A stretch of 64,000 nt of DNA, the filler included, from Globobulimina sp. (taxonomy: Eukaryota): the NCBI GenBank assembly GCA_003354225.1. It is 40 parts of 40 records of this genome, joined end to end, with 100 filler letters (N's around TTAATTAATTAA, not from the genome) between each part and the next. Parts side by side here need not be neighbours in the genome. Positions count along the whole stretch, not along the records: positions 19,237 to 20,739 come from PIVH01015650.1; 39 more parts are not named here. One strand, 5' to 3'. Position 1 is the stretch's first letter, and each line of letters starts with the position of its first letter. Positions 11,222 to 38,368 of this stretch are shown piece after piece. The position numbers and the translations under genes were made by a program. The notes below the pieces were generated by a model. That model saw only the letters and a program-made list of their open reading frames with translations, searched no databases and was not told where the DNA came from.

Positions 11222-12724
11222 AGTTTCTTGTTTGATATATTTGCGAACATAGATGGTATTTATATGCATTTGGGCAGATCTTATACAACAATCATAATGG
11301 CCCACATCTAAAGGAAATATATGATTGGATAAGATCTCTTCTTTCAAATTTGCATACTTTGATTCTATATAAAAACCATCAAATTCTGGATTGTTTTTAT
11401 AAAAGGGCCAATAATAAAACTTATATCCAAAGTCTTTGTCTCTGAAATCATTTACAAATTTATTATTCTTTATTCCATCGACGCCGTCGCCGCCGCCGCG
11501 AACACGACACAATTCAAAGTATTTACTGCCTAATGAGCTATGCAACTCTTTTAATCTCTGGTCATTGTATGATTCTTCATCTTTATTCTCATTCTCATCA
11601 TTACATACTATTCGCGATCGATATCCAGCATCAAAGGAATGCAGCAGATGAATATGAATTGTATCCAACAAATCGACGTAAAAATTTAAATATTTATCCT
11701 TATCTCTAGATCTCCCAATAATCTGTGTATTGCCTCGATTTCGGTTATTTCGAATATATGCATTACAACTCTTTAAATCGCAAACTATATTAAACATTTC
11801 ATAAAGCATTGTAAACGTTGCGTCGTTTTCTTGTGAAGAAGCATTCAAATGAGCAGATAAAATATGATGATAATCATTTAATAAATGGTGGTATTTGCGA
11901 CAATAAGTGGTTAGAATATGATTTTTATGGTGCATTTGATTTAGTATTTGCTGATAGAATTTTAATAATATCTTAATACGTTTTATGGATAAACATTTAT
12001 TTAATAAATGGCATTCATTTAATGGTTCTTTCTCAATCTGTAACTCATCCAATTCGTGGTATGCATCCTTTAAATACTGTGATGGCGGCGGTGCAGAGGG
12101 CCGATTTGGTTTACTCCCTTTACTCCGTCTTCGAGTGATCAATGTTTGAGGCGATGGCGATGGCGATGGCGGTGGCGGTCGCCGCGGCGGTACAGACTTA
12201 CTTCGATTAATACTTATTGCCATTTCTTCCTCTTCCTCGTCCTCTTCCTCTTCCTCTTCCTCTTCCTCGTCATATGCTTCCTCTTCACCTTCCTCTAACT
12301 CCTCTTCTTCCTCCTCATTAATTCTTATTTTATATTTGGATGAAAATGTGATTTCAAAATCACTCACACATTCTCTTTCTTCTTTTTCTTTTTCTTTTTC
12401 TTTCTCTTCATCACTGGATTCTGACTCTGACTGTGACTGTGACTGTGATCGATGACTATTTCTTCTTCGTTTAAATTTTGTTTTTTTTTTCCTTCGCCTT
12501 TTTTTTTTTAATTTTCGACTTTGATGTTGTGCGATTCGCGCCGACTGTCTTCGTTTTTTTTTCTCTTTTCTTCTTTTCAATTTATTTGAATTGGAATGAT
12601 GGGATTTCCTTCTTCTTTTTTCTTCTTTTTTGCCTGTTTTCAATTTATTTGAATTGGAATGGTGAGATTTCCTTCTTCTTTTTTCTTCTTTTTTGTGTGT
12701 TTTCAATTTGTTTGACTGAGAGTG
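11222..12724 (-). CDS. Charged low-complexity protein with His/Cys-rich domain; paralogue of the ART-family gene at 60.9 kb; truncated at both ends
   Basis: K/R, E and P tracts; HLLNDYHHI..H...CDLKSC..Y.RN.R...LDTIH..L.H; FGYKFYYW...YIESKYANLKEEILSN matches FGVRFYFW...YINGNYPDLKQEMLQN in ORF 60935. Confidence 0.65.
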
Positions 12725-18473: not shown

Positions 18474-19828
18474 TATCGTTCATTGAAATTACTGAAAAAT
18501 GATGTACAAAGTAACATTATCGTTCAAATGATGTACAAAAATTGATTATAATGAAATTACTGAAAAAAGAGCGAATGATCAAATATTATATAATCATAAA
18601 TTAAATGAAAAAATATTGCAAATTGAATCAAATGATAAAACAGCTGGTTTATTTCGGGAATCTATGTTGGAAATATTTGATACTTTAAAATTTAGCGACA
18701 TTCATGGTATGAAAATATGGTATATTGCATATTATATTTTAAATAATGAAGCAAAACCAGATCCAGCCTAAATTCCTCGTTCTAAAGAAATTAGAAAATT
18801 ATACAATCAATGATTTATTTGTACATTAATTGTTATTTATTTTTATGTATATTCTTTTTGTACATCATTTGTAAATAAACATAAATACTCTGAATAACTT
18901 ATCTATGTTGTAAGATTTTTCATTCTATTCTCCTTCTTTGTTAAATAAGTTTCTGCATGTTTGTATTTTTCAATGCAATTATACAAATTGTTGTTTTTAT
19001 TGCATTGAAGATTACGACCTTGCAATTCATTTTAACATCACATTGTGATTAATATTTATCTAAAGAGTCTACAAAAAAATTATCAGACCAATTGATCGTG
19101 GTTTCCGACTCATGAAATTTAGTGATTTGTCATTACNNNNNNNNNNNNNNNNNNNNNNNNNNNNNNNNNNNNNNNNNNNNTTAATTAATTAANNNNNNNN
19201 NNNNNNNNNNNNNNNNNNNNNNNNNNNNNNNNNNNNCTAGTTCCTAGCTGTCGTTAATTGTAATGACTTGTAATAACTAGTTTTTGCAAACTAGTCACTC
19301 AAATATCAATTGTAATAAATTGTAATTGATGACACCTAGGTCCTAGGTATCAATTCTAATTACGTAATACTAGAACATTCCCTAACCTGGCGAGCAATAT
19401 ACTGCGTTTAGTGAGGAAAAGTATGTTGAATAATTCTTGATTTGTCCGATGTATTGCCAGTATTGTGTCATTTGCAATTGCATACAGAATTGACTGTTCT
19501 TTGAAATATTATTGTACTCTTGAAAATATGTTCCCATAATTCTAGTGTTATGAATATGGAAGAATATTAATACTGCAATCACAACAAATTCAAGAGTAGC
19601 GAAACAATTCTCATCTTGTCTCATTGGATCGCATATTCGCATATTCTAGTCCCAACACTCTATAAACACAACTATTGAGCTAATTTTCATAGTGGTGATC
19701 GGACTTCAACTTTTGGAGTTAATCGCGCACCACAATGATTAGTAGTTTTCTAACTTTGCATCATATGTTCAAAAAAGTTCCGATCAGCTGCATCTTCTTA
19801 ATTTATGATTGAAATCCATTGAGCCATC

Positions 19829-20737
19829 TTAATATGGAAAATGACATAAATTACATTGACCATTTTCAAATATATGTATTCCATTTGGATCAACGCATTT
19901 AATGACACGATTAAAAAATTTAGACATAAATGCAAAAAAGCGATGACAATCACGGCACATTTTCATTGTTATTGTTACTGATAAATTACTGTTAATATTA
20001 TCAACATCTAACAATATCGCCAATGCTTTCTTTTCAGCATGATATTTTAAGTGTTTTTGTCTTGCTTTTTTATTAATTAATGATCCGTTACAAACAGAAT
20101 AATCAATATCATAACCACTCAAACATATTAATTTATTAATTTTATCATCATCGGCATCAATATCATTGGATCCATTGCATATTATCATTTGTTTCCCATT
20201 TAAAGTGAAAAATGCCACCATATTCGTGTCCAAATGGTGGTGCTCATCATTACCATTCTCCAAATTCAATATTTCCGATAAATGTATTTGTAATTCTTTA
20301 TCATTACATTTTGTAGCTCCACGATATAATGCAATACATTGATATAAATCCAATCCATTAATATCAAAACAATTAGCATATTCATTATCATTTTCATGCT
20401 TTTTAATGACACAATTTGTTTCATTCAATGTCTGTTTTGCAATGCATTGATTATTAACATTATTATAGTATTTGCATAAGGAACATTGATATAAATATAC
20501 ATTTGATTTGATTATATTCATTAAATCATTTAGTTTTTCATTTCTGTTTTCATACTGCAATAATATATTCAATGCACAAATGTCATGGTTTCCTGTTTCT
20601 GTCATTATCTTATCATAAACCAATCGCATTTCATTCAATTTATTTAATTTGCCGCAGCCTGTTATTATTTGATGAAATGAGGTCGGATTTACATTTGAAA
20701 TGCTTTGTAATTGAGTTACTAACTTTTTATTATTCAA
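19829..20737 (-). CDS. PPR protein with C-terminal DYW-type cytidine deaminase domain; 5'-truncated
   Basis: PPR-like NPTSFHQIITGCGKLNKLNEMRLVYDKIM; GYDID...LKYHAEKKALA (HxE), MKMCRDCHRFF (CxxC), RVIKCVDPNGIHIFENGQC. Confidence 0.85.
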   Translation of the reverse strand: MNNKKLVTQLQSISNVNPTSFHQIITGCGKLNKLNEMRLVYDKIMTETGNHDICALNILLQYENRNEKLNDLMNIIKSNVYLYQCSLCKYYNNVNNQCIAKQTLNETNCVIKKHENDNEYANCFDINGLDLYQCIALYRGATKCNDKELQIHLSEILNLENGNDEHHHLDTNMVAFFTLNGKQMIICNGSNDIDADDDKINKLICLSGYDIDYSVCNGSLINKKARQKHLKYHAEKKALAILLDVDNINSNLSVTITMKMCRDCHRFFAFMSKFFNRVIKCVDPNGIHIFENGQCNLCHFPY

Positions 20738-20839
20738 TANNNNNNNNNNNNNNNNNNNNNNNNNNNNNNNNNNNNNNNNNNNNTTAATTAATTAANNNNN
20801 NNNNNNNNNNNNNNNNNNNNNNNNNNNNNNNNNNNNNNN

Positions 20840-27252: not shown

Positions 27253-28754
27253 AATAAATCAAAAACTAAATCAAATTCGCCTAAAACAGCAAATAAAAAA
27301 AAACACACAGCACAAACACCCAAACCGCGTACGCCTAAATCTGCAAAAAAAATAAATTCATCAAAACCACCACCACCGCCAACTGTAAACAAAAACGTTT
27401 TAAATCAACCAAAACCCCCCAAAAAACAAAAAAAACCACCACCACCAAACAAAATAAATAGCGTTCCTGCACCACCCAAAAAAACACAGTCAGAAAACGC
27501 AAAAACACCAAACCACCCAAAGCTTCCCGATTCAGTCAATAAAAAACCAAATCCACCACAATCTCCAAAAAGACCAAAAAAAACACCACCACCAAACAAA
27601 AGAAATAGCCTTCCCGCACCACCTAAAAAAACACAGTCAGAAGACTCAAAAACAGCAGACCCAAAGCTTTCAAATTCAGTGTGGGCGCCACCAAAACGCG
27701 TATTTTTCAAATCAATCAGTGTCACTACATCCGAACCCCCGCTATTTAGGCAAAATGCTTTGGCGCAAAGCAAATCTAAATCTGTCCCCACCGATCATCG
27801 CAAAAGTTTGTCAACATCAGCTGTAAAACTGCCGCATCCTCCACCGAGATCACAGAGATGCAACAAACCGAGCACAGCAACAAAGTTTATACCTTCTACG
27901 GATGAAAAGGAATCCGCTCAGTTTATACCGTCTGGCGCTGGCAATGCAAAACCGTTTATGTGTCGAGTAAACTATGAATGTAAAACTCAAAAAGGCAAAC
28001 AAGAAATATACGACGCATTGAAATTATTAGCACCAAATCCTGGCACCATTACGTATCATTTTACTGCTCCAAATGCTGTCAAATATCCATTGAAATTGGA
28101 ATTTATTGAATTGTATTATGACGAAAACGCATATTTCAAACAGTTGTATTATTATACAAAAGCACCGCAATTTGAAAAGGCATATTTCAAACACGTCAAA
28201 TCAAAAACGGTTCTGACGATTGGTGAGCATTTAAGCGATAAAATTAGAAAGATAATTGGCATTAAATTTAAATCACGTTTTGGACAAAGCGAAGCTGGAT
28301 ATTTATTTCATGAAAATTATTTAAAATCGTTGGATTATACGGATGCTACAAAGCTAATGTTCAAATTTCATGTCATTGTGCCTGGGAAGGAAGAAAATGT
28401 TGCATTGTATTTTAGTATAATGGATCGATTGGGAGTATATGCAAAGGAATCGTATGCATTGATGTTTAATTGTCATCGATTGGATGTTGAAGTGTATCCA
28501 AATTATTTGGAATTGATATCAATTTGGCCAAATATTGAATGTTTATTGGAGTTTTTGCAAAAGGATAAAGTGCAAATTATAATGATGGAATTTAAACAGT
28601 TAATGATTAAACAAACTGATAAAGTTAATCGGAAAAATCATGTTTTGTGTGAATTGTATGCTGAAAATGAAATTAAATGCGAGGTGATGCAAATGATTCA
28701 CATGGTTTTTGATGACATTGGTTATACGCAACAACTTAAAACTGATGCTGGTTA
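27253..28754 (+). CDS. Pro/Lys-rich repeat protein with unknown globular C-terminal region; truncated
   Basis: Internal duplication at about 27419-27537 and 27565-27680; long ORF 27679 onward. Confidence 0.55.
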
Positions 28755-33727: not shown

Positions 33728-33898
33728 TAAAAACACAATACTCTACTTTAACCGAACTAGTTTTTGTTTTTAATTTCCTCACAATTTTACAGTCTATTTT
33801 ATTAATTCAATTACAATTCTGTTTATATTTTGGCAAAAAAACGTACAAAAAACTTACAAAAAACTACTTAAGAATTCACAAAACAAAAACTATACAAA

Positions 33899-35164
33899 AT
33901 GGTTAAATATAATATATTGCAATATAACATAAATGGAATGATAAATCCAACAAAAATGTCACAATCAGAAAAATGTAATAAAATTTATCAAATAATGCTG
34001 TCAAAACAAATTGATTTTGTTTTACTCCAAGAATGGAGTGCAACATTGAGATATGCCGTAACTCCGAAAAATCCGAAATATATTGACAACAATAACAAAT
34101 CCCATACCATAGAATTCCCAATAAACCTATTCCCAAAATATAAAGTACATTTCACTGGCACAGAAACAGCAATTCTGTACAGAGAAACTCTCCTAATTAC
34201 TCCTCTAAATTCCCCTATAAATTATAATCGAAATAACCGCACAAGAAACTGCCACATAACAAGTGTGATCCTCCACTGTGGCAACCAAGATATAGGCGTC
34301 CATTCCTTGTATAATTGCCCTAGAAACCCCAATATTGACCAACTCTTTGATTATCCATTAAATGTTGATAAAAATATAATTGCGGGGGATTTCAATGTCC
34401 CGAATGTGATCTGGGGCAGTAATCGCTCAACAACTGAGTCAAATGACTTTGTTGATGGCTTAAACCACCTTGAAATGCAAATATTAAATCTAAATAATCC
34501 ATCATATACTCATATCCATAAATCCTACGGAACGAAATCCTCCATTGATTTAACATTAATTTCCAATAATTTGAAGCATACAAAGTGGAGTATCCTTCAC
34601 TCCCTATTTGACCCAAACTGCTCCGATCACATTCCCATTATTACAACCTTTGAAGTAGAGAACGTTTTTGGTTTTAGTGAAACAAAGAAAACCTGGAACC
34701 TCTCAAACCAGAAAAAGTGGAATAAATATACAGAAACGTTAGAAACAAACATAAATGAAACAACTTTTGACCCAGCACCAAATATTTATACTGAACAATT
34801 AACATATCTTATTTTGTACACTGCTGAACAATCAATTGGATATAAACACTATTACAGAGGTCATAAACCATGGTGGAATAATAAAATTAAGAAACTAAAG
34901 AAAAAATGTAAACGATTAAGACGTAGAATCCAAAGAATAAAAAGGAATGCAAAACGACTACAAACAGATTTCCATTTGTTCCCAAAATATATCCGATTGA
35001 AAGAAAAGTTAAACAAACTCCAATCCAAGAAATGTAAATCTATAATAACAGCGAAAAACGATTATAATGTCCGATTAAATAAATACATACAAACGTGCAA
35101 GGACTATGGCAGACGTTTTTGGCGTACAATATCATGCAATAAATCAAATGATATCAGTACCAAT
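33899..35164 (+). mobile_element. LINE-type non-LTR retrotransposon ORF with APE-like endonuclease; RT region lies beyond the contig end
   Basis: ILQYNING, LLQEW, LYNCP, IIAGDFN....WGS, SSIDLTL, SDHIPI, then WN..., KPWWN and FWR linker motifs. Confidence 0.9.
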
Positions 35165-36762: not shown

Positions 36763-37046
36763 CGATNNNNNNNNNNNNNNNNNNNNNNNNNNNNNNNNNN
36801 NNNNNNNNNNTTAATTAATTAANNNNNNNNNNNNNNNNNNNNNNNNNNNNNNNNNNNNNNNNNNNNGCCAAACATTTAATTAATTATGAAAGTAATCAAC
36901 AAAGTTCGAACGATGAATATGAAGAAACGAATGTTTTCATCAATTCAAATAATACGAATAATTTTGATCTTTGGGAGGATAATTATAAACAATTATTTTT
37001 ATTAAATAATGGCAATTATGATGCATACAAATTAATTAATGAAATA

Positions 37047-38368
37047 TTGGATGGAAATGCACAAATTAAAGATATACATGTTATGACTTACAGTCTATTA
37101 CACAATTATTGTGGAAATGTGTTTGATTTTTTAGGTCAAACAACAAACGATTACATAACACATGAAACCTTTGTCGAAGAAGTAGTTACTTATTTGGGTC
37201 AATTGCAAAATGTAGTTACAGTAATTGCACATAATGAAATTCCGATTGTTGATAAAAATGGCACATTACGGGTTGGCATAAAAGGCATTGAATCAACGGA
37301 TGAATTCGAAACATGTTCATTTGCACAGAAATTAATATTATATGATCACGGTAGCATTGAGGAGCAAATTGAGAGCGCATTACAAACCATCACAAGTGAT
37401 ATGCATCAATATAACATTCGTACATTTGATATTAAAATGGATATGTTATTGCAACAACATTGCGGTGGAATGGTAATGCAGTTAGAAACGCATCAAGTTT
37501 ATCATGGCAATTTCCGTGATAATTTATATAAAATGAGCGATAATTTGATCAATAATCACGGCGAAATATCCAAGCATGAAAAATATTTTATTAATGTAAT
37601 GAATGGTGACATTATAAGCAATTTGAAATCAAACGAATACCCAACAAATAACATGGTTGAATGTCAAGCAATCGACAAAATGGTGGAATTACATGGTTTT
37701 GATATTATTAATCATCTTAATTCTGTTTCAGATTATAAAATTTCAGATTTTGAGCAGCATTCCAATTTTGTTTCGCAATATCAATATGCTCAACAAATGT
37801 TGGAATACAAAAACAAAAATGATTTTGCAAATTTAAGGCATGTTGTTGGAGAAGCAATTGATGCATTTTACCATGATGAAATTAGTGAATTTTACCATAT
37901 GGAGCTGCAATACAACTCAATCATGCAAACGTTATCTGCGTCGATGGAACAATATATCATTGATTTAAATGCAACCAATTCGAATAAATCAACTTCAAAT
38001 GTAATTGTTATGGATATAACCTCTGGAATCATTATTGATGCATTTTCAAAAGCTAAGGTAAAAACGTTGGGATATAATTGGATGGAAATTGAGGTATTAA
38101 CCACTTTCAAACAATTATATATCGCACAAGAAAATGTAGAAATTGTTACAGATAAAAAAAGAAATGTAGAAAATGTAGAAATTGTTGGAGAGATAAAAAA
38201 AGAAATGAATAATGATTCGAATTCCAATATTAATTCCGAATTGGTGCATTTTGTTGATATGTTATGGAATGATGTTACAAAACTTAATGATTCTGATAAA
38301 ATTGTACGTGGATTTGATGAGGATATTATTTATGGATTAGAGAGATATTGTAAATCTATGATGGATGT
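37047..38368 (+). CDS. Hypothetical protein; truncated
   Basis: Uninterrupted ORF of more than 430 codons in AT-rich DNA. Confidence 0.6.

Follow-up and report, generated by a model that had tools for sequence, protein, structure and literature searches.

In plant organelles, C-to-U editing is catalysed by DYW deaminases, which are also the subject of engineering towards RNA base editors, and their patchy occurrence in protists bears on the origin of the editing system. Here, we describe a gene fragment from Globobulimina sp. (NCBI GenBank assembly GCA_003354225.1) that ends in a DYW-type deaminase domain, and we discuss, using sequence searches, structure prediction and a phylogenetic tree, which function the protein may have. 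The window, as we call the whole stretch of DNA that was analysed, measures 64,000 nucleotides and consists of 40 separate contigs of 1503 or 1502 bases each, arranged by length and joined by linkers of 44 N, the six-frame stop word TTAATTAATTAA and again 44 N (e.g. 20740-20839), which recur at a spacing of ~1603 bases, or 1602 further along where the contigs have 1502 bases. The open reading frames (ORFs) that flank the DYW ORF in the window are not its neighbours, because they lie on other contigs, and a gene order read across the linkers is invalid.

The reading frame and its deaminase domain

The DYW ORF and the parts of its deaminase domain are listed below, with residue numbers of the encoded protein, hereafter the query, where they apply:

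19237..20739, no strand: contig with the DYW ORF, 1503 bases, GC content 0.29, with 100-base artificial linkers on both sides
19829-20737, minus strand: DYW ORF, 302 sense codons followed by TAA (19829-19831), open at the contig end
19832..20224, minus strand, residues 172-302: complete DYW-type deaminase domain with PG-box-like beta hairpin (174-187), gating-domain region, HAE helix, CRDCH and C-terminal zinc tail
Residues 173-182, minus strand: MVAFFTLNGK, PG-box-like segment
Residues 209-213, minus strand: GYDID, a motif quoted in the initial annotation of this DNA
20033-20041 (HAE), minus strand, residues 233-236 (HAEK): zinc-1 His H233 and catalytic Glu E235, with A234 where plant DYW:PG domains have Ser893
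19970..19972, minus strand: I256, where plant domains have the autoinhibitory Lys (K915 in OTP86)
19943-19957, minus strand, residues 261-265: CRDCH, with the zinc-1 Cys C261 and C264 and the first zinc-2 His H265
19844..19876, minus strand: H288...C295-N-L-C298, counterparts of the other zinc-2 ligands, with the Cys pair spaced CxxC, before the end HFPY
Residues 288-302, minus strand: C-terminal end HIFENGQCNLCHFPY, which closes the ORF

The ORF covers the C-terminal portion of a longer gene whose N-terminus lies beyond the contig, and no intron is apparent. At the base composition of the contig, 302 open codons have a chance of 6.6e-13, and among 1000 shuffles of the contig the longest ORF had 173 codons, against 302 in the real one; an open frame of this length in 29% GC DNA therefore argues for a gene under selection. 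By tblastn, the ORF aligns without large gaps to residues 762-1058 of the related protein P0154, and seven family proteins compared with the whole window matched the DYW ORF as the sole locus. A 602-base contig of run X3 begins at 20578, has its first 162 letters on the window and extends ~440 letters beyond 20739, which indicates that the gene continues upstream.

The initial annotation had recognised a DYW-family deaminase here and had suggested a search with a hidden Markov model of the family. In that search Pfam DYW_deaminase (PF14432) matches residues 221-296 at E 5.8e-12, with 45.7 bits against a cut-off of 24. All three PDB entries matched by phmmer at E <= 0.01 are DYW domains, namely 7o4e (OTP86 DYW, E 2.9e-8), 9kfx (a synthetic PPR-DYW protein, 2.5e-7) and 7w86 (DYW1, 7.2e-7), and a protein-atlas look-up led exclusively to DYW/PPR clusters, with a top score of 0.95. 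An AlphaFold2 model computed from the alignment of relatives reached a mean predicted local distance difference test score (pLDDT) of 81.6 and a predicted template modelling score of 0.65. When this model was searched with Foldseek, the synthetic PPR-DYW protein came first (E 3.7e-9) and the DYW domains of OTP86 and DYW1 came next; for the deaminase domain the match had E 2.8e-5 and a template modelling score, normalised by target length, of 0.70-0.73. Superposition with VIA-align gave Z 19.5 with 9kfx_A, the synthetic PPR-DYW protein, across model residues 3-300, Z 17.0 with the active-state OTP86 DYW domain 7o4f_D (root-mean-square deviation 2.4 Å over 120 residues; model 173-300, chain 826-959) and Z 14.8 with DYW1. 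As far as the model goes, the domain thus has the deaminase fold with the gating-domain insertion, and residues 172-187 form a beta hairpin exactly at the PG-box position, in line with the PG-box-like segment that had been proposed.

Ligand roles can be transferred to the query from the structure paper on the OTP86 DYW domain (PMC7611903), and on this footing both predicted zinc sites appear complete in their ligand residues. H233, C261 and C264 align with the zinc-1 ligands H892, C920 and C923 of OTP86, and E235 aligns with the catalytic E894. At zinc 2, the places of OTP86 H924, H947 of strand beta-7, C954 and C956 are taken by H265, H288, C295 and C298, with a CxxC spacing of the Cys pair against CxC in OTP86. 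Across 50 aligned rows H233, E235, K236, C261 and D263 are invariant, and C264, H265, H288, C295 and C298 are at least 90% conserved. All motifs quoted in the initial annotation (MVAFFTLNGK, GYDID, HAEK, CRDCH and the terminal segment) are found in their places, and its remark that the catalytic Glu is intact holds for E235.

Upstream of the domain, the model places three helix hairpins and one insert, all on the minus strand:

20492..20698, residues 14-82: two helix hairpins (helices 18-30/34-48 and 53-62/66-79), conserved across the clade described below, pLDDT 93-96
20396..20488, residues 84-114: four-Cys insert (CxxC...C...C) between the second and third hairpin, pLDDT 44-54
20258..20365, residues 125-160: third helix hairpin (helices 131-143/147-156), directly before the deaminase domain, in the position of plant E2

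Structural matches to model residues 1-172 were mostly PPR proteins at Z 8-9.6, a range in which, by the tool's own warning, matches between helical repeats are ambiguous. A profile of residues 14-82, made from 21 clade rows only, gave a weak signal, with four upstream PPR-array sites at an independent E-value <= 1e-3 and none in shuffled sequences; one of the four overlaps the Pfam PPR_2 match of the relative P0047. It is reasonable to call the hairpins at residues 14-82 PPR-like. A profile of the third-hairpin part matches plant-like rows ~140 residues from their C-terminus, a result that is partly circular because plant rows are in the profile. The four-Cys insert is present in the query, P0154 and P0002 only, being absent from the other eight aligned rows shown, and may be a small zinc-binding loop.

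Two further candidates were set aside. P0045 (2110 residues, nine matched stretches) had been considered as a repeat relative of the N-terminal part and was dropped, its Pfam matches being unrelated and of low complexity. The basic, acid-poor first 40 residues of nine of 20 relatives were given no weight, since this is not a validated targeting prediction and many of the models are truncated.

Relatives and departures from plant domains

HMMER, run exhaustively against 1.84 billion representatives, returned 353 proteins at E <= 1e-3, 49 at <= 1e-10 and four at <= 1e-30. The relatives discussed here are the best 150 of these 353 matches, plus additions from a word-indexed search of longer proteins; the word-indexed search at similar protein length yielded none from 771 candidates. 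P0002 (757 residues), the best of the matches listed, is 47% identical to the query across its residues 2-298. The closest full-length relative, P0154 (1058 residues), is 47% identical over 100% of the query and carries a PPR_2 match (E 1.7e-25) in addition to the DYW domain, and the foraminifer Nonionella stella has three proteins with PPR and DYW (P0009, P0155 and P0047). From the PPR arrays of the full-length relatives, we infer a PPR-DYW architecture for the query as well.

For the alignment, 113 of 155 proteins had a complete domain (42 were too short or lacked the motifs), and removal of two cluster-mates left 111 rows. A quick IQ-TREE analysis of 158 columns under LG+C20+F+G4, with posterior mean site frequencies (PMSF), was made from these rows, which are the best matches to the query, with plants thinly sampled and no labelled DYW:KP sequence included. 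The query joins P0154 with a support of 81 in the Shimodaira-Hasegawa-like approximate likelihood ratio test (SH-aLRT), and the pair falls in a six-row group (98) within a 44-row group (97, stem length 0.8), here called the clade; a plant-like group of 36 rows is separate (SH-aLRT 95). Names were sought for 27 DYW-related proteins, 19 of which belong to the clade. Five of these 19 were named, all of them from N. stella in EukProt (P0003, P0009, P0155, P0025 and P0047), and the clade contains all five N. stella rows of the query's type. Outside it, the hit list includes a chrysophyte, Dinobryon (P0070), and a green alga, Tetraselmis, which belongs to the P0068 cluster. Over the whole alignment, the query is 47-55% identical to clade members versus 17-22% to plant-like rows, and it is this identity as much as the tree, together with the diagnostic columns given below, that places it in the foraminifer-holding clade. 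In the rows analysed, this clade has a size of at least 44 representatives at 50% identity.

The first contig of the chain encodes a housekeeping protein that is 47% identical to unnamed proteins, 41% to proteins of N. stella and Bolivina argentea, 37% to one of Reticulomyxa filosa and 30% to one from a cercozoan metagenome-assembled genome. With this proximity to foraminiferal proteins on another contig, and with N. stella as the source of every named clade member, the initial description of the organism as a probable rhizarian is supported. It is most likely a foraminifer or something closely related to one, and the identities set it apart from N. stella, B. argentea and R. filosa.

One further N. 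stella protein in EukProt, P0115, lies in the plant-like group and has HSEKL, a Lys at the K915 position and the end CSCNDYY. Over 440-560 residues, the PPR array of P0115 shows 27-28% identity to those of P0154 and P0009 (E ~1e-49). Foraminifera may carry both DYW types, or P0115 may be foreign to the N. stella transcriptome.

Which features set the clade apart from plant domains? In the 111 rows, columns numbered after OTP86 are occupied as follows:

P826: P in 22 of 36 plant-like rows; N in 26 of 44 clade rows; mostly gaps in the other 31 rows
G827: G in 27 of 36 plant-like rows; V in 34 of 44 clade rows; mostly gaps in the other 31
S828: S in 31 of 36 plant-like rows; A in 31 and S in 10 of 44 clade rows; A in 19 of the other 31
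S893: S in 34 of 36 plant-like rows; A in 23, S in 17 and C in 4 of 44 clade rows; A in 24 and C in 6 of the other 31
K915: K in 31 of 36 plant-like rows; V in 36 and K in none of 44 clade rows; V in 25 and K in none of the other 31

At P826-G827 the query has N172-M173, which is neither PG nor KP, and at S828, S893 and K915 it has A175, A234 and I256. By these counts, the S828/S893/K915 set is confined to the plant-like group. In the OTP86 paper, the three residues are described as locking the catalytic Glu in an inactive state (PMC7611903); with A175, A234 and I256 in their places, the enzyme would therefore not be autoinhibited in the plant manner. The C-terminus departs as well: plant-like rows end in GxCSCxDYW, the top ~30 matches end in GxCx[LS]C plus zero to four residues or a longer tail, and the query ends in CNLCHFPY, with the DYW tripeptide absent.

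Within the clade, the positions of S828 and S893 covary although the Lys that they tether in plants is absent: 22 of the 44 rows have Ala at both and 10 have Ser at both, and every one of the 10 rows with the first Ser also has the second, in counts drawn from related rows that are not independent of one another.

What the contig carries is a genuine and, it appears, functional C-terminal piece of a DYW deaminase gene of the foraminifer type.

Proposed function and its alternatives

What might such a protein do? We consider site-specific C-to-U editing of mitochondrial RNA the most likely function, and a reasonably probable one, given the protein family, the conservation of the ligands and the precedent in other protists. 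Naegleria and Physarum combine PPR-DYW proteins with mitochondrial C-to-U editing (as cited in PMC4758236), and the same combination is described for the rhizarian paradinids, whose sequences were grouped with those of fungi on account of a two-residue deletion that they have in common (PMC11946409). A survey of 2026 counts 31 DYW domains in Rhizaria and describes the PG box and the DYW tripeptide as variable in non-plants (PMC13386178). The available literature texts gave no description of foraminiferal DYW proteins, which may nevertheless be among those 31 rhizarian domains. In view of the paradinids and the surveyed domains, the word 'undescribed', which the initial annotation used for a possible mitochondrial editing system of this organism, goes too far.

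In the proposed mechanism, the nuclear gene of a foraminifer-like rhizarian would encode an RNA-binding protein of PPR-type helical repeats with a DYW-type zinc cytidine deaminase at its C-terminus. The upstream repeats, beyond the contig, would bind one or a few organellar transcripts, most likely mitochondrial by analogy with PPR-DYW proteins of plants and protists, and would thereby position a target cytidine in the deaminase site. A water molecule on zinc 1 (H233, C261, C264) would be activated by E235 and convert C to U, and the second, structural zinc (H265, H288, C295, C298) would hold the C-terminal tail. The RNA substrate, the C-to-U direction, the mitochondrial site and the PPRs in the N-terminus of the gene are all four inferred.

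Several observations weigh against this reading. The contig ends 171 residues upstream of the domain, which leaves it with no PPR array and without the region of a targeting peptide. Pfam models of PPR, TPR and the E motif found nothing at E <= 1 in the 302 residues, where DYW_deaminase alone matched. The helix pair that the initial annotation called PPR-like is thus present as hairpins 18-48 and 53-79, both at pLDDT > 90, while its repeat family is left to the ambiguous structural matches; likewise, its term PPR-DYW fits the sequence in the DYW part and depends on the relatives for the array. Compared with active plant enzymes, the query has no PG, no DYW tripeptide and CxxC at zinc 2, and editing activity is assumed. 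An approximately unbiased (AU) test in which the query alone was forced among the 36 plant-like rows, a group named after the tree had been seen, cost 16.96 log-likelihood units and did not reject this placement (p-AU 0.275). Finally, the available text of the retarian mitogenome paper mentions neither base-conversion editing nor PPR proteins, only a conserved cox1 frameshift in Miliolida.

A broader proposal, which we put forward tentatively, is that foraminifera, and perhaps Retaria, possess an expanded, undescribed DYW subtype with an N-V box, no Lys lock and a CxxC tail, beside the plant-like type represented by P0115, and that this subtype drives unreported mitochondrial base-conversion editing. 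As the plant autoinhibition triad is absent, such an enzyme may be constitutively open. If true, a constitutively open enzyme would be a candidate for a small, unregulated and possibly bidirectional RNA base editor.

It is also conceivable, if rather unlikely, that the query binds organellar RNA but has lost the editing activity of its DYW-like domain; it could then have a structural role or a role in RNA processing, or serve as a partner for another protein. In plants, a C-terminal Trp and the PG box are reported as important for editing activity (PMC7611903, PMC13386178), and both are absent here, with W960 essential in two plant proteins (PMC7611903); the spacing of the zinc-2 Cys is altered, and no editing in foraminiferal mitochondria is reported in the available text of the retarian mitogenome paper. 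However, the catalytic Glu and every one of the seven metal ligands are retained, with little or no variation in the 50 relatives, which would be unexpected in a dead enzyme, and the clade is large.

Considerably less probable is an enzyme for U-to-C or dual-direction editing comparable to the DYW:KP proteins known from hornworts, lycophytes and ferns. DYW:KP domains are defined by K-P in place of the PG box. The initial annotation linked HAEK, together with a non-DYW ending, to U-to-C editing in hornworts and ferns, and the specificity of HAE for DYW:KP among plants is in print, as is the U-to-C activity of KP domains in E. coli and human cells and of designer KP proteins (PMC9478123). A234 gives the query this HAE, and the PG dipeptide and DYW tripeptide are absent from it, as are the plant autoinhibition residues; according to the OTP86 paper, U-to-C editing may not need strong autoinhibition (PMC7611903). 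The step from HAE to U-to-C editing that the initial annotation suggested is not supported, however. The KP paper states that the middle residue of HxE does not tell the two reactions apart (PMC9478123), and Ala is in fact the majority residue there in non-plant DYW-like domains, in 47 of 75 rows (23 of 44 in the clade and 24 of 31 in the other rows). Within the clade Ala alternates with Ser among close paralogues (Ala in 23, Ser in 17 and Cys in four of 44). Moreover, the PG-box position of the query reads N-M and not K-P; KP proteins are described as differing from the PG type in this box (PMC9478123) and as confined to three land-plant groups (PMC9478123, PMC13386178), and the protist DYW lineages with described editing show C-to-U (PMC11946409, PMC4758236). 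We found no evidence for reverse editing in these sequence comparisons, by which HAE is not diagnostic outside plants.

That the contig is a contaminant from a plant, an alga or another protist is very improbable: the assembly is highly fragmented, the AU test leaves a place among plant-like rows, and the named relatives come from the transcriptome of a wild-collected foraminifer that could hold foreign sequences, but the query is closer to the clade (47-55% identity) than to plant-like rows (17-22%) and agrees with it in the columns that tell the two groups apart (N-V/M for P-G, no Lys at K915, CxxC tail), the GC content of 0.29 falls within the 0.27-0.46 of the other 39 contigs, a housekeeping protein encoded elsewhere in the chain also comes closest to proteins of foraminifera, and identical or near-identical pieces of the coding part are present in contigs of runs from two studies.

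If site-specific C-to-U editing is indeed what this protein performs, foraminiferal mitochondrial transcripts are predicted to differ from the DNA at specific C positions; mitochondrial genomes of foraminifera became available no earlier than 2023. The query adds a foraminifer-like organism to the list of those with DYW domains, and the non-plant domains examined in public data are uniformly without the plant Lys/Ser lock (Lys in none of 75 rows). Three points are of most note: the plant autoinhibition residues are absent across the clade, the zinc tail has CxxC, and editing, as yet unreported, is predicted for foraminiferal mitochondria.

The remainder of the window holds features on the DYW contig and on others. 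Two segments 3' of the DYW stop codon, 19307-19386 and 19667-19736, have a summed contig depth of hundreds to thousands, against ~5 in the coding part, and many of the contigs that cover them continue into dissimilar sequence; these segments are probably dispersed high-copy repeats of the genome. The depth values count contigs from four runs and are uninformative on expression. Elsewhere in the chain, Pfam identifies ordinary eukaryotic proteins, including an Ostalpha transporter, RCC1 repeats and a septin-like GTPase. Further features on other contigs are:

33872-35164, plus strand: fragment of a retroelement without long terminal repeats (non-LTR), with Pfam endonuclease/exonuclease/phosphatase and 'endonuclease-reverse transcriptase' matches, E 4e-17
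11222-12724, minus strand; 27253-28752, plus strand; 36867-38366, plus strand: three contigs that are open throughout (500-501 codons), with no Pfam match at E <= 0.001

These three contigs are long lineage-specific or repetitive coding sequence.

Comparison with known DYW systems

With the plant DYW:PG proteins OTP86 and DYW1 (7o4e/7o4f, 7w86), the query shares the family, the fold and filled positions for all zinc-1 and zinc-2 ligands, at 26% identity across the residues that align with the DYW domain of OTP86. The order of parts is also the same, with helical repeats followed by the beta hairpin, the gating region, the HxE helix, the CxxCH helix and the zinc-binding tail. In contrast to the plant proteins, it has N-M for P-G, no lock triad, CxxC for CxC, an HFPY end and no Pfam match to the E motif. 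The DYW:KP proteins, compared here by description, resemble it in HAE for HSE and in an altered PG box and C-terminal triplet, but the query has N-M and not K-P, and its clade mixes HAE and HSE.

Comparable in organisation, again by description, are the non-plant proteins of Naegleria gruberi, Physarum polycephalum, Acrasis kona and the paradinid Ascetosporea, in which a PPR array and a DYW deaminase occur together with mitochondrial C-to-U editing; the paradinids, like the organism of the query, are rhizarian. The true family of the query are the unannotated N. stella proteins of its clade and the metagenome proteins P0154 and P0002, with which it has the linker hairpins, H[A/S]EKK, MCxDCH and the GxCxLC end in common. 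It shares the four-Cys insert with P0154 and P0002, whereas the N. stella proteins are without it, and it is a fragment from a different, AT-rich organism, while its full-length relatives carry PPR arrays.

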